This document shows, in pieces, positions 1,730 to 56,966 of a stretch of DNA of 64,000 bases (within the stretch, counting starts at the first letter, position 1; every line of letters starts with the position of its first letter). Source of the stretch: Candidatus Marsarchaeota G1 archaeon BE_D (GTDB taxonomy: Archaea > Thermoproteota > Thermoprotei_A > Marsarchaeales > Marsarchaeaceae); contig NEXD01000002.1 in assembly GCA_003019595.1 (NCBI GenBank), forward strand, positions 13,137 to 77,136. The letters run 5' to 3'. A program made the position numbers and the translations under genes. The notes below the pieces were generated by a model. It did no database searches, was not told the DNA's origin, and saw only the letters and a list, made by a program, of their open reading frames with translations.

Positions 1730-2155
1730 ATGACATCAATAACTCGTTTAAAGGCAACGGTATGGAAAAAAATGGTGTGTGAAGAAGATCCTATTTTTGT
1801 TAAGCGCTATCGTGAACGAATGATACAGTGGAGGAGGGAACCAACTGTTCATCGAATCGATAAACCTACAAGAATTGAAAGGGCACGCGCTCTTGGGTAC
1901 CGTGAAAACAAAATGTCAATCGTCGTAAGAGTCAGAATAAGAAAGGGAAACCCATTTCACACGAGACCACGTTCTGGTAGAAGACCAAAAAGAATGGGTG
2001 TGAAAAAGCTCACATATGCTATAAGTGACAAAAAAATTGCTGAACAAAGAGCTCAAAGAAAGTTTACCAATATGAAAGTAATGGGAAGCTATTTGGTAGG
2101 CGAAGATGGTCAATACAAATGGTACGAGGTAATTTTAGTAAGAGAAAAGCAATAG
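1730..2155 (+). CDS. rpl15e: 50S ribosomal protein L15e (unusually short, 141 aa)
   Basis: WRREPTVHRIDKPTRIERARALGYRENK, VRVRIRKG, RPKRMGV and GEDGQYKWYEVILV are L15e signatures. The ORF stops about 50 aa before the usual end. Confidence 0.85.
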   Translation: MTSITRLKATVWKKMVCEEDPIFVKRYRERMIQWRREPTVHRIDKPTRIERARALGYRENKMSIVVRVRIRKGNPFHTRPRSGRRPKRMGVKKLTYAISDKKIAEQRAQRKFTNMKVMGSYLVGEDGQYKWYEVILVREKQ

Positions 2156-2279: not shown

Positions 2280-3461
2280 TTGTTAATAGGAATTGTCGGA
2301 AAAACTAATGTAGGAAAATCGACTTTCTTTTCGGCGGCCACGCTTATAGATGTGGAAATAGCAAACAGACCATTTAAAACGATTAAACCAAATCGTGGTA
2401 TTGCTTACGTGAGAACAAAGTGTGTTTGTTCAGAATTAAATGTAAAAGACAAAGTGTGTCACGATGGGATAAGATTTCTACCGGTTGAGCTTTTAGATGT
2501 TGCAGGCCTTGTTCCAGGTGCTCATCTTGGAAGAGGGTTGGGAAACAAGTTCTTGGACGATCTGAGGCAGGCCGATGTTTTTATTCATGTGGTCGACGCA
2601 AGTGGAAGCACGGACGAAGAAGGAAGACCAGTTCAAGCGGGAACAAGGGATCCAATCGAAGACGTGAAGTTTTTAGAAAAAGAACTTGATGAATGGATTG
2701 TTGGACTCTTAAGCAAAGATTGGGAAAAAACTATAAGAGTAGTTGAGCAAGGATCGACAGACATTGTGATGTCACTTTATGAAAAACTATCCGGTTTAGG
2801 TTTTACAAAGCAGTTGATCGAAAAAACTTTAGTGGAACAAGGTCTTTGGAGAAAAAGACCATCGACGTGGACAAAAGACGAGATTAGAACGTTTGTTACA
2901 CGATTAAGAAAAATTGGCAAACCAAGTGTGATAGCCGCTAATAAGGCCGACATTCCGCCTGCTATTGAAAATATAGAGCGGATGCGAAAAACACTTTCTA
3001 TACCGGTTATACCAACAATCGCTGAAGCTGAGCTAGCACTCAGAAAAGCTTCAAAAAAAGGTATAATAAAATACTTACCAGGAGACACAACTTTCGAGAT
3101 GCTTAGCGACAAGATTCCACAAAACCTTAAGGAAGCGCTAGAAAGACTTTCCTTTTTACTGAAAAAATTTCAGGGTACTGGTGTTCAGCAAGCACTAGAA
3201 ACTGCTGTCTTTCATTCATATGATGGGATAGTTGTATATCCAGTAGAAGACATAAACAACTATTCAGACAAAAATGGTAATGTTTTGCCCGATGCGTTTA
3301 TTCTAAAGAAAGGTTCAAAACCTATTGATTTGGCAAGGAAGATTCACACAGATTTGGCAAAGGGTTATTTGTATGCAATAGATGCAAAAACCAAACAAAG
3401 ACTTAGTTCGGACTACGAATTAAGAAATGGCGATGTCATAAAGATTGTGGCAACTGCCTAA
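2280..3461 (+). CDS. YchF/OLA1-family P-loop GTPase/ATPase with C-terminal TGS domain
   Basis: 393 aa. G1 GIVGKTNVGKST, G3 DVAGLV, NKAD, and a C-terminal TGS-like LRNGDVIKI. TTG start. Confidence 0.8.
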   Translation: MLIGIVGKTNVGKSTFFSAATLIDVEIANRPFKTIKPNRGIAYVRTKCVCSELNVKDKVCHDGIRFLPVELLDVAGLVPGAHLGRGLGNKFLDDLRQADVFIHVVDASGSTDEEGRPVQAGTRDPIEDVKFLEKELDEWIVGLLSKDWEKTIRVVEQGSTDIVMSLYEKLSGLGFTKQLIEKTLVEQGLWRKRPSTWTKDEIRTFVTRLRKIGKPSVIAANKADIPPAIENIERMRKTLSIPVIPTIAEAELALRKASKKGIIKYLPGDTTFEMLSDKIPQNLKEALERLSFLLKKFQGTGVQQALETAVFHSYDGIVVYPVEDINNYSDKNGNVLPDAFILKKGSKPIDLARKIHTDLAKGYLYAIDAKTKQRLSSDYELRNGDVIKIVATA

Positions 3462-8872: not shown

Positions 8873-9506
8873 ATCTACCCCTCAATCTAAGTTGCCTCAT
8901 TCTTTCAAACACTCTTTTTGTATACTCATGTCCCATTTCTTCTTGATATCCTCTAAAAAACTCGTTAAGAACTTCTCTGTGAATACTTGGTCTTAATGAT
9001 TCTATAACTTTTAGAAAGAGATTGATGTCAACCGCTTCAGCTTCTAGGTCGTAACTGAATTCCCCAAGTCCAAAATCCATTATGAAGACCTCATCTTCTT
9101 TTACTATAAAATTTGATGGCGTGGGGTCGCCGTGAATAATGCCATTTGTATGCAATCTTCCCAAACTGGACCCCACTTGGAAGGCGTGCTTTAAAAATTC
9201 ACTATCTGGTAGATCAGAAAGTCTTAAGCCTTTGACGTATTCCATAAGTATCGCTGCATGTGTTTTACTCACAGCATAAACAGCAGGAACTTTTACATCA
9301 AAAAGGCACGCTTTCACAAGAAGCTTTGCTTCAAGAATTGTTCGTCTTTTCCGTATAATATTATCAAGTTCTGTATTCCTATACGATTTAACCTTTCTTA
9401 TCTTCATCACACATTTTTCTCCAAAAAAGTCCACTATGTATAGCGTTGCTTCTGCACCAGAGCTCAAAACTTGTAAAGGTGTCAAACCGAGAAGCTTGTT
9501 CTCCAT
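8841..9506 (-). CDS. bud32: KEOPS subunit Bud32 (RIO-type kinase/ATPase)
   Basis: 221 aa. GAEATLY, VMKIR, GIIHGDPTPSNF and IMDFGL motifs. Overlaps the kae1 end by 25 nt in another frame. Confidence 0.8.
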   Translation of the reverse strand: MENKLLGLTPLQVLSSGAEATLYIVDFFGEKCVMKIRKVKSYRNTELDNIIRKRRTILEAKLLVKACLFDVKVPAVYAVSKTHAAILMEYVKGLRLSDLPDSEFLKHAFQVGSSLGRLHTNGIIHGDPTPSNFIVKEDEVFIMDFGLGEFSYDLEAEAVDINLFLKVIESLRPSIHREVLNEFFRGYQEEMGHEYTKRVFERMRQLRLRGRYVEQRRSRSQ

Positions 9507-10479
9507 GGTACCTTCACTTCTTCAATTCTCCATCGAGGTCTTACAAAGCTTTCTTCTATTTCTATAAAACTTTTAAATGGATAATAGAGCGCACCAACGT
9601 ATGCTATCATCGCACCATTATCGCCAGCCAAATCTCCAGGAACAACTGAGAATTTAGCCCCCCTTTCTTCACACATTTTTCCTAACATTTCCACTAGTTT
9701 TTTTGAACGCGCAAGCCCTCCCGTTAAAGAAACTTCATCTTTTCCACTGGCAACTAGCACCCGCTCGGTCACTTCGGTTACCATCGCAAAAGATTCTTCA
9801 ACTAGGGTGTAAGCAAGGTCTACCACATCAACCCCTTTTGACAACATTCTTTTTGCGGCCGTTAGCATTCCTGAAAAACTCAAGTCTTGTCCTTTTATTG
9901 GCATTGGAATGTCTACTAGTTTTTCCCTTTTTGGGCAAGCTCTAGCACTTTTGGTGCACCAGGATATCCATAACCTAATTCTCTGGCGAACACGTCCAAA
10001 AGATTGCCTAGCGAAATATCTAAAGTTTCACCAGCTACAACATACCTGCCAGCAGCGAAGATCACTACGGCCGTGTTTCCTCCTGAAACATAAAGAGTCA
10101 CAGGATCCTTGGTTTGGGTGAATTTTCGAGCAATTTCAATATGAGCAACCGCATGATTTACTGCAATTAACGGGACCGATAGTTTGAGTGAAAGCGCTCT
10201 TGCGGTGACAGCTCCTACTCTTAAGCAAGGCCCAAGTCCAGGACCAAGCGCAACGGCCACAGAACAAATATTCAATTTTTTTTCTGAACAGAAACTAAGC
10301 GCGTCACGAACAATTTCTGGTGCCACTTCCACGTGATGTCTTGCAGCTTCTCTTGGGTGTATCCCGCCTTCTTTAGTTGTGTAGGTTGAAGAAAGATTTA
10401 GCAGAATTTCTCCTTCTAAAGTGCTCAAACCAACACCAAAGGTGTGCGCGGTGCTTTCTATACCCAAAACTACGTCCAT
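9482..10479 (-). CDS. kae1: KEOPS subunit Kae1 (tRNA t6A37 threonylcarbamoyltransferase), frame-disrupted at an A5 run
   Basis: Track ORFs 9916-10479 (GIESTAHTFGV..HHVE..GPGLGPCLRVG..YVSGGNT..LAQKGKN**) and 9482-9904 (PIKGQDLSFSG..GGLARSKKL) are the two halves of one Kae1. A -1 shift at GGG AAA AAC (plus-strand T5 at 9920-9924) gives LAQKGKKLVDIPMPIKGQDLSFSG. Confidence 0.85.
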
Positions 10480-14342: not shown

Positions 14343-16132
14343 TTATCGCTTGTCTTCACAACCTTTTCTGTACTCTTCTAAGAGTGCTAACTCTTCTTCA
14401 GTGAGCATAGACCTGAATTTAGATTTCAAAAGATTTGCGTGTTCTTCTGGAACAGCGGTGTACAATACCTCGCCTTCAAAGATATGTCTACCCACAACTA
14501 CGTCACCCTTAATTGATATCGCAACACTTTGCCCTTTTGTTGCGCTTTCCAAAGTTTTTCCACTTTCTTGAATCTGCATAATAGTACCGATAAACTCACA
14601 TTTAGCATTTTGTAAAGGATAACCTGGTTTAATTTGTCCCTCTAAAACTTCAATGCCCACAATTACAGGATTGCTTCTTCTGAATACATATCCTTCAAGA
14701 ATTTTGAGTTTTGCTGGTCTTATAAGCGCAGAAAATTCATTGATTAAGGCTTTGCTTTTTTGTTCCTGTAACCATTTGGTGTATTCTTCAATTAATTCGT
14801 AGATCACTTCTTTTCTAAATATTGGAACACCTAACTCTTTGGCTTCTTCAACGACATTTGACAAAGGTCTAACATTAAAAGCCAAAACTACTCCGAAAAA
14901 TGGATCGCTCTTTTTTGTTATTGCCGCTTCGAGAACATCCCTTTTTGAGATGTTTCCTATATCCGCATATCTCACAGGAATACCATTTCTTCTTAATGCG
15001 TCTACAAGGGCTTCTAATGAACCAAGTGCGTCAGCCTTGACAACAACACCCACCTTGTCCGATTTTATTCTTATGGAATTTAACTCATTGAGGATCAATT
15101 CTTGTGCTTTGTCTAATGACATCATTCCGTTTACCACATATATCGGTGAACCTGCGACAGTTTTGTCCAAATCGGCCGCAACGATCTTTACGCCCATTGC
15201 GGCTTGTGCTGTTTCCACCTCGATAAACTTATCTTCAGGGCTTCTCATATCATTAAGTGGTTTTGGCACAAGAATCGCCTTTACTTTGGTAATTATCGCA
15301 CCCTGTAGCCCACCTAAAACGATCGTGTCTCCTTTTTTGAGAACTCCGTCGTAAATTATAGCATCCACAGTGGTTCCCAAACCTGGCTCTTCTTTCACTT
15401 CAAGCACGACGCCTTTGGTCTCATTAAAATTAATTTGAAGTTTATTTTTAAGAAAAATCTGGCACAGTCCGATTGTGATTAGCATTAATTCTGGTATGCC
15501 TTCACCTGTCAGTGCGCTAACGGGAACTATTGAAAGCTGGGATCTAAAATCTTTAATCCTGTCAAATCTTTCTGCAAAAAAACCCAAATTGGCTAAATCT
15601 CCGATTAGTTTGTAAAAAAGACTGTCAAAATTAGTCTTTACCAATATAGTTTGGCTATTGAGACTGCTGATTACATCCATTTCAGGGTGAGCGACCCACC
15701 CAGGAATTCTGTCTATTTTGTTTAACGCAATTAGAAAAGGTGTCTTTTTTTCCTTAAGTATTTGAATGCTTTCAATTGTTTGTTTTTCTAGGCCTTTTAG
15801 CACATCCACCACTAAAATCACAATATCAGCTATTGAACCACCTCGCTTTCTTAAATTTACGAAGGCTTCATGACCTGGTGTGTCAATAAACAAAAGTCCT
15901 GGAATTTCAATTTTCACGCGATATTTGGAAATCAAATTACCAGCTAGTTTTCGCACCACTTCAGAAGGAACGTAACTAGCTCCGATATGCTGCGTCTAGC
16001 ATCCTTTTACAGGATCATGCCCGCAGCTTCTCGGAGCTGAACAGTCGTTCCTCGGATTTTATCGAGTAGTGTTGTTTTCCCAGAATCAACGTGACCAAGA
16101 ACTGAAACTATAGCTTGACGAAGAATCGTCAC
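14343..16132 (-). CDS. infB: Translation initiation factor aIF5B, interrupted by a 20-nt BHB intron: join(16132..16016, 15995..14343)
   Basis: Exon 1 (GTG 16132, GGTGAT 6 nt upstream) encodes [39 protein letters not shown]. Exon 2 continues [32 protein letters not shown]. The two are in different frames, separated by 20 nt containing stops. The spliced product is 589 aa. Confidence 0.85.
15996..16015 (-). other. Bulge-helix-bulge mini-intron in the aIF5B pre-mRNA
   Basis: Coding strand reads GCUGCG|GGCA|[UGA]|UCCU-GUAAA-AGGA|UGCU|[AGA]|CGCAGC. That is a 6-bp outer helix, a 4-bp central helix, two 3-nt bulges on opposite strands, and a 4-bp inner hairpin. Confidence 0.8.
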
Positions 16133-56865: not shown

Positions 56866-56966
56866 TGCGGGGAGTGGGATTTGAACCCACGCAGGCCTTC
56901 GCCGGCAGATCACTCATTGTTTTGATCTTGAGTCTGCTCCCTTTGACCAGGCTCGGGCATCCCCGC
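56866..56966 (-). tRNA. tRNA-Leu (CAA) with a 16-nt canonical (37/38) BHB intron
   Basis: Acceptor GCGGGGA/UCCCCGC, anticodon stem GCAGA/UCUGC, loop CUCAAG|intron|A, long variable arm, T arm GUGGG-UUCAAAU-CCCAC. The intron pairs CUCA/UGAG, with AGA and UGA bulges. Confidence 0.85.

Follow-up and report, generated by a model that had tools for sequence, protein, structure and literature searches.

A putative bulge-helix-bulge intron in the gene for the translation factor aIF5B of Candidatus Marsarchaeota and a Bathyarchaeia-like lineage

The stretch of DNA considered here (the window) comprises 64,000 nucleotides (nt) of contig NEXD01000002.1 from Candidatus Marsarchaeota G1 archaeon BE_D, and the element in question lies in the gene for aIF5B (archaeal IF-2/eIF5B, infB) of this hot-spring archaeon. 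The gene is interrupted by 20 nt, and it is very probable that these form a genuine bulge-helix-bulge (BHB) intron, which would be excised by the tRNA splicing endonuclease EndA and whose flanking exons would be ligated by RtcB. In Archaea, the tRNA splicing endonuclease typically acts on BHB motifs, and RtcB then seals the 2',3'-cyclic phosphate and 5'-OH ends left by the cuts. The evidence at the level of sequence consists of the geometry of the motif, the restored reading frame, the colinearity of the product, a clade-wide insertion site with compensatory changes, and purifying selection on the exons. From these we infer excision in vivo and the participation of the two enzymes.

The locus is made up of the following parts, with positions counted within the window:

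16144-16139: GGUGAU, a Shine-Dalgarno-like hexamer preceding the GTG start of aIF5B
16132-16016, minus strand: aIF5B exon 1, 39 codons with a GTG start and the P-loop GHVDSGKT, ending in ...REAAGM
16018-16016, minus strand: AUG, the last codon of exon 1
16015-15996, minus strand: putative BHB intron AUCCUGUAAAAGGAUGCUAG, 20 nt
Between 16016 and 16015 (5') and between 15996 and 15995 (3'), minus strand: predicted cuts
15995-14343, minus strand: aIF5B exon 2, 550 codons and a stop, with the G2/switch-I threonine as first codon

A sequence-only reading of the window had claimed that the aIF5B frame is broken by 20 nt carrying stop codons, and this holds to the base. Both exons and the stops were located on the minus strand, with AUCCUGUAAAAGGAUGCUAG placing a UAA in the exon-1 frame and a UAG standing immediately upstream of the exon-2 frame. 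The unspliced junction is GGGCATGATCCTGTAAAAGGATGCTAGACGCAG and the spliced one GAAGCTGCGGGCATGACGCAGCATATCGGAGC; the unspliced message can be translated only into a P-loop peptide of 41 residues.

The minimum-free-energy fold of the junction RNA (16036-15980) reads GCUGCG - GGCA - (UGA) - UCCU - GUAAA - AGGA - UGCU - (AGA) - CGCAGC, with the bulges in brackets, and adds a distal helix. Its elements, all on the minus strand, are listed below (bp, base pairs):

16027-15989: hBHBh' core, found in the minimum-free-energy fold, the pair counts and the RNAalifold consensus
16027-16022 with 15994-15989: outer exon-exon helix GCUGCG/CGCAGC, 6 bp
16021-16018 with 16001-15998: central helix GGCA/UGCU, 4 bp
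16017-16015 and 15997-15995: bulges UGA and AGA, 3 nt each, on opposite strands
16014-16002: intron hairpin UCCU-GUAAA-AGGA, 4 bp and a 5-nt loop
16036-16031 with 15985-15980: distal exon-exon helix CUCCGA/UCGGAG, 6 bp, from the minimum-free-energy fold

A 3x3 internal loop (GAA/AUA) separates the distal helix from the BHB core, so that the extended structure spans 16036-15980. The fold has a free energy of -27.6 kcal/mol (z = -4.9), and none of 200 shuffled sequences was as stable. The allele of the window thus has the strict hBHBh' features, namely two 3-nt bulges with a 4-bp helix between them, flanked by a 6-bp outer and a 4-bp inner helix, and the structure drawn in the sequence-only reading was recovered exactly.

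In the proposed mechanism, the aIF5B pre-mRNA would fold locally, with the exon codons that flank the insert pairing in the 6-bp outer and 6-bp distal helices and the four exon-1 bases ahead of the UG of the AUG pairing with the 3' end of the intron to form the 4-bp central helix, which would leave the two 3-nt bulges on opposite strands. EndA would then cut after the second base of each bulge, and RtcB would join GGC AUG to ACG CAG. Applied to the sequence, this cleavage rule removes exactly 15996-16015 and gives a protein of 589 amino acids (aa) with the switch-I sequence G-M-TQHIGA. The spliced protein scored 793 bits against NCBIfam PRK04004/NF003078 (cut-off 468) and 735 against TIGR00491 (cut-off 554.75); both scores are full length and above the cut-off only once the 20 nt are removed, and the G1 to G4 motifs follow in order. 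Across the junction the alignment is gapless with aIF5B of Aeropyrum pernix in PDB 5fg3 (REAAGMTQHIGAS against KEAGGITQHIGAS) and also with PDB 1g7r. The PRK04004 score and the 5fg3 alignment agree with the earlier proposal that the excision restores the conserved G-domain sequence and a 589-aa protein. The same reading had called aIF5B an essential translation factor; the factor is universally conserved, but "essential" is stronger than can be supported.

Bare BHB geometry alone is not rare in the window. A strict scan (outer helix of at least 6 bp, inner helix of at least 4 bp, intron of 10-120 nt) found 6 motifs, no more than chance would give, since first-order Markov simulations based on the window yield about 5.5. 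A relaxed scan combined with a frame-merging test gave hundreds of chance matches on the 38% G+C window. The aIF5B motif was the sole compact, G+C-rich match of the strict scan and bounds the frame-breaking insert exactly. A motif of this kind would fall at a specified position and length with a probability of about 4e-7. Rfam contained no matching family, with only two sub-threshold matches to microRNA hairpins (19 bits, gathering scores 69-93). A self-splicing intron of group I or II was rejected, as there was no covariance-model match and 20 nt are far too short for a ribozyme. The decisive evidence for the putative aIF5B intron is comparative.

A collection of 5.8 billion proteins was searched with the spliced aIF5B. 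The nearest homologues (58-65% identity) were solely N-terminally truncated calls of 519-531 aa, and those at 53-57% identity were all full length and came from Thermoprotei, Bathyarchaeia, Methanomethylicota and Staphylothermus. The DNA behind seven truncated calls carried an insert at codon GM/TQHIGA (the slash marks the site) in 7/7 cases, in a common neighbourhood of L7Ae, S28e, L24e, NDK, aIF5B, S6e, eIF2-gamma, PIN and Rpb7. When one genome per species was scanned with DNA patterns, seven further insert carriers were found, labelled Candidatus Marsarchaeota or unclassified archaeon; a genome scan by the peptide pattern EAAGMTQH had no match because that pattern spans the intron. A metagenome DNA scan, in which only the distal flanks were fixed and the BHB core and insert length were left free, zero insert included, retrieved further Marsarchaeota alleles as well as a second group, and no intron-free allele with these flanks. 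Every Marsarchaeota relative retrieved carries the insert at this site. That the window itself belongs to Marsarchaeota is borne out by its L7Ae and NDK, both identical to proteins of Marsarchaeota G1/G2. Matches to the DNA patterns that arose by chance were discarded (L013, L018, L020, L025, L026, L029, L034 and L040).

Taken together, 17 distinct alleles, 12 of Marsarchaeota and 5 of the second lineage, are interrupted at one and the same codon by inserts of 14, 15, 16, 19, 20 and 21 nt, which cover all three frame offsets; the 15- and 21-nt inserts contain an in-frame TGA. Two loci, L005 and L011, share 96% protein identity with a synonymous divergence (dS) of 0.21, yet their inserts measure 14 and 15 nt, a 1-nt indel that the gene could tolerate only with the insert taken out ahead of translation. 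Cutting after the second bulge base restores the frame in 17/17 alleles. Exon 2 is intact, with 547-554 codons, in all relatives that are free of contig-end cuts except L022; there, on a contig of 5.7 kb from an older metagenome, it stops after 369 codons, for which a sequencing error is the most likely cause.

Several other records touch on the same gene. Two short aIF5B calls on long contigs (P0261 and P0267) were considered as a second intron site and rejected as assembly noise, since their neighbours were also fragmented and there was no intron at the site. In the ENA contigs contig_13500 and contig_62822 (L045 and L046), which have long-read-style names, aIF5B, Top6A and glutamate synthase are fragmented, probably through indel noise; these contigs have no intron at GM/TQHIGA although they encode VQLREAGGM and VQAREAGGM. 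The entry DATGLQ010000002.1 (L017), titled "bacterium isolate SMAG_U9890", carries a Marsarchaeota-type split aIF5B, and an archaeal aIF5B cluster (P0158) is named "[Eubacterium] cellulosolvens"; both labels look wrong.

Pairing was quantified in an alignment of 15 alleles, where 97.7% of cells were paired compared with 26-41% when the partners were slid by 1-3 columns; for the central helix the value was 96.7%. Six pairs had changed on both sides, and none of 500 shuffles reached the observed covariation score. At outer-helix pair 2, the combinations C-G, U.G and U-A were found, with exon 1 changing from GCU (Ala) to GUU (Val) and exon 2 synonymously from CAG to CAA. Pair 5 of this helix went from C-G to G-C, which changes GCG (Ala) to GGG (Gly) in exon 1 and leaves exon 2 synonymous (ACG to ACC). 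At central-helix pair 3, likewise from C-G to G-C, GGC to GGG is synonymous and the intron changes from UGCC to UCCC. The inner hairpin is free to vary (UCCU/AGGA, UUCC/GGAA, UCUC/GAGA, UCCC/GGGA) or is absent. RNAalifold independently recovered the distal, outer and central helices. The covariation between the two coding exons is thus unusually clear.

An entropy test was restricted to nine sequences found by protein similarity alone, and hence without pattern bias, and to codons of invariant residues. Within the pairing region, from codon -9 to codon +4, the entropy of third positions was 0.64 bit, compared with 1.34 outside (permutation p = 3e-5), and third positions in the distal helix were nearly invariant. 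Frozen synonymous sites at the pairing exon codons point to selection on the RNA and not on the protein. For the joined exons, the ratio of nonsynonymous to synonymous substitution rates (dN/dS) was 0.04-0.07, which indicates that both are under purifying selection. A comparison of infB loci from related genomes had been put forward as a check of whether the insert and compensatory base changes are conserved, and the outcome, 17 alleles of 14-21 nt with compensatory changes and intact exons under purifying selection, is strongly positive.

The second insert-bearing group (L023, L030, L031, L032, L035, e.g. at 3344-3404, L041, and L042, which was reached via protein P0137) has a 19-nt insert at the same codon. 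Its spliced aIF5B proteins are 47-51% identical to those of Marsarchaeota; the nearest named relatives are Bathyarchaeia (60-63%) and the nearest intron-free relatives reach 65-68%. The core is compensated here as well, with a GGGA/UCCY central helix and a GUUGGG/CCCARC outer helix, and the first central pair is G-A in two alleles. Gene callers start these genes at a spurious TTG, from which the frame runs on through the insert (MGGCSLEGSK...). In a neighbour-joining tree of aIF5B (midpoint rooted, no support values), the Marsarchaeota alleles form one clade and the second group falls within a Bathyarchaeia-like cluster beside intron-free genes, with many intron-free lineages between the two. 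Both groups share near-identical exon flanks (CAGCUCCGAGARGYUG...CAYAUCGGAGC) and the motif VQLRE-x-x-G-M/I, whereas intron-free relatives have ordinary sequence at the site and no exon-exon helix (REPGTM/TQHIGA in L044 and REPGAI/TQWIGA in L043). An old transfer together with the exon helices, an independent gain, or ancestral presence followed by many losses might each account for this distribution. Upstream codons are saturated at third positions, and the shared flanks and motif are therefore compatible with each of these origins.

Other explanations have to account for the same observations. In a decaying pseudogene, the 20 nt would be disabling and aIF5B would be supplied from elsewhere. 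The frame is indeed broken, gene callers give only a truncated product, and within this genome the view of a possible second copy is limited to the window. Decay is nevertheless scarcely credible in view of an insert at the same codon in 17 alleles of two lineages with exon 2 intact at 547-554 codons, the low dN/dS, and an RNA structure kept by compensatory changes. In addition, no full-length Marsarchaeota-like paralogue was found among the 5.8 billion proteins, where everything with at least 58% identity was of the split form, and the nearest full-length matches lie in the own aIF5B-S6e neighbourhood of other organisms. The chance that the 20 nt are absent from the real genome and stem from assembly or sequencing is practically negligible. 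At least one likely homopolymer frameshift does occur elsewhere in the window (kae1, around 9920-9924), but more than 35 contigs carry the insert, and these were obtained independently with regard to sample, source (NCBI, JGI, ENA, Logan) and assembler. The sequence of the insert is, moreover, lineage-specific and covaries.

Translational recoding, in which the ribosome would frameshift or hop with the hairpin as stimulator, is suggested superficially by a stable hairpin at a frame break, and cbf5 cases were formerly mistaken for frameshifting (PMC2738675). It is highly improbable here. The insert lengths of 14, 15, 16, 19, 20 and 21 nt would need +2, 0 with stop read-through, and +1 among close relatives, and no single recoding mechanism fits because all three residues modulo 3 are covered. 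There is no slippery sequence, and the conserved element is specifically a pair of 3-nt bulges four base pairs apart. Hopping from AUG to AUG was ruled out, as these sole matching take-off and landing codons (the second lying in the insert) land out of the exon-2 frame. It is also very unlikely that the RNA is cut without rejoining, as a regulatory cleavage, or that two polypeptides are made, a 41-aa P-loop peptide and a large fragment. EndA also processes rRNA precursors and a Haloferax 5' untranslated region (PMC7714728), and in-frame starts are present in exon 2 a few codons past the junction. The first such start varies among relatives, though, with called products of 519-564 aa that all lack or garble the threonine of the TQHIGA switch-I, and the junction has no conserved ribosome-binding signal. 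Moreover, the cut sites always restore an exactly colinear aIF5B at any insert length, a precision which is expected only if the ends are joined.

Some observations weigh against splicing by EndA and RtcB and need to be set beside the evidence for it. No junction-spanning protein of the Marsarchaeota type was present in the collection of 5.8 billion proteins, and no spliced-length match (gap = 17) in the metagenome DNA scan, but both collections are essentially DNA-derived, so that these results are uninformative rather than negative. A Pfam scan of 60 open reading frames (ORFs) of the window brought up neither EndA nor RtcB. RNAalifold pairs the first bulge base U with the A preceding the 3' strand of the central helix. 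The 14-16-nt inserts of relatives have no inner helix and place the 5' cut site in a 10-12-nt terminal loop; they are of the relaxed bulge-helix-loop form, which some EndA types would leave uncut. Since about 100 nt of coding sequence precede the motif, translating ribosomes could compete with folding.

The relaxed form has been associated with the heterotetrameric EndA of Crenarchaeota (PMC2738675, PMC5829648), and the strict 3-4-3 form of the window allele should be cleavable by any EndA type. The introns of aIF5B and cbf5 both lie within the first ~210 nt of the gene, an early position which may limit conflict with ribosomes. The organism appears to use this splicing machinery because two further introns of the window, in tRNA-Leu and in cbf5, need the same enzymes:

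56866-56966, minus strand: tRNA-Leu(CAA), found by Rfam and missed by ARAGORN
56926-56911, minus strand: intron of tRNA-Leu(CAA), 16 nt, at position 37/38, with central helix CUCA/UGAG and bulges AGA and UGA
28192-27985, minus strand: cbf5 exon 1
27984-27966, minus strand: cbf5 insert AGUUUAAAAAAGCGGUGAC, 19 nt
27965-27220, minus strand: cbf5 exon 2

The tRNA-Leu intron of 16 nt is cut by the same rule and at the same place in the bulges as proposed for aIF5B, in accordance with the sequence-only reading. In cbf5, the insertion point falls inside the codon for the catalytic Asp of GHGGTLDP. The minimum-free-energy fold of this insert again has the canonical hBHBh' form, and its removal gives a Cbf5 protein of 317 aa. 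By this sequence evidence, the known crenarchaeal cbf5 intron extends to Marsarchaeota.

Work of 2002 demonstrated BHB introns in archaeal protein-coding mRNA with cbf5 as the case, and a survey followed in 2009; cbf5 is the one gene in which such splicing was experimentally shown (PMC2738675). As late as 2020, cbf5 was described as the sole further archaeal mRNA reported to contain a BHB intron, apart from a 5' untranslated region in Haloferax (PMC7714728). A literature search, which did not cover the original Marsarchaeota paper (Jay et al. 2018), found no description of an aIF5B intron. The earlier remark that an infB case had not been described is in line with the 2020 statement (PMC7714728), and no paper linking aIF5B, intron and endonuclease was found within the literature searched. 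On the sequence evidence, aIF5B would become the second archaeal protein-coding gene family with an endonuclease-type intron.

The closest counterpart is the cbf5 intron of Crenarchaeota (Desulfurococcales and Sulfolobales; Watanabe 2002, Yoshinari 2006, Yokobori 2009, PMC2738675), which is likewise a short BHB (16-44 bp) in coding sequence. Both introns adjoin a catalytic residue and lie close to the 5' end of their genes, are lineage-specific and are missed by annotation pipelines, and the tRNA splicing endonuclease, which cuts the cbf5 intron, is the enzyme proposed for aIF5B. There are also differences. The host gene of the aIF5B intron encodes a translational GTPase and the hosts are Marsarchaeota and Bathyarchaeia-like organisms, so the finding lies in aIF5B and not at the cbf5 Asp codon, a feature which the window's own cbf5 has separately. 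Crenarchaeota with a cbf5 intron (of the Sulfolobales/Desulfurococcales type) have an intron-free aIF5B (A. pernix 5fg3; Staphylothermus, full length). The aIF5B motif of the window is a strict 3-4-3, whereas many cbf5 motifs are relaxed, and some aIF5B alleles, at 14 nt, are shorter than any cbf5 intron in the 2009 survey (PMC2738675). Splicing was shown for cbf5, whereas for aIF5B it is predicted from sequence.

Archaeal tRNA introns at position 37/38 (BHB or bulge-helix-loop) share the geometry and cleavage rule with aIF5B, and the tRNA-Leu(CAA) intron of the window is built like the 14-16-nt infB inserts of relatives. Unlike in tRNA, there is no tRNA body for recognition in aIF5B, and the outer helix consists of two coding stretches. 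Protein and RNA constraints overlap because this helix is made of coding sequence. The BHB intron in the 5' untranslated region of HVO_1309 in Haloferax volcanii (PMC7714728) is, as proposed for aIF5B, an mRNA substrate of EndA outside tRNA and rRNA; it differs in lying in an untranslated leader, where no reading frame is interrupted, and in a euryarchaeon with a homodimeric enzyme.

A more distant parallel exists in eukaryotic stress signalling by IRE1. Splicing of HAC1 and XBP1 mRNA by IRE1 and RtcB is also independent of the spliceosome and relies on paired stem-loops and a tRNA ligase, and the 26-nt XBP1 intron shifts the frame. Nuclease and recognition motif are unrelated to those of aIF5B, and IRE1 acts as a regulated stress switch, whereas for the aIF5B intron there is no evidence of regulation.

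A second gene, in a class-level clade and another lineage, would place mRNA splicing by the tRNA machinery beyond a one-gene oddity. The aIF5B junction offers a natural overlap of RNA-structure and protein constraint, in which changes of exon-1 residues are offset by silent changes in exon 2, and the inserts, at 14-21 nt, lend themselves to probing which substrates the endonuclease still accepts in the absence of a tRNA body. It is possible, though rather doubtful, that the intron is not just a passive relic: splicing about 100 nt into the message may be obligatory and serve as a checkpoint that ties aIF5B synthesis to EndA-RtcB capacity, or the intron may have spread laterally or been gained recurrently. 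If true, mini-BHB introns with exon-borne helices may spread laterally or recur at a favoured site in protein genes. For annotation, all database entries seen for these aIF5B genes are truncated or have a false start codon, and a universal translation factor is thus mis-annotated. Frame-aware BHB searches at such breaks would probably reveal more cases. The first Marsarchaeota isolates, Tardisphaera, were described in a paper that makes no mention of introns and counts 24-29 pseudogenes (PMC12542729); with these isolates an experimental test may be feasible.

Two further genes of the window depart from their expected length. The ORF for ribosomal protein L15e (1730-2155, plus strand) covers positions 17-135 of the 191-position Pfam model, and a C-terminal part was not evident in any frame downstream. 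The kae1/tsaD gene was called as two ORFs:

9482-10479, minus strand: kae1/tsaD, with a break at about 9920-9924

An intron was ruled out for kae1, as the split is a 1-nt frameshift in an A5 run (GGGAAAAAC) with no BHB motif. With A6 the sequence would read AQKGKKLVDIP, and the break is either a homopolymer error of the assembly or a site of slippage.

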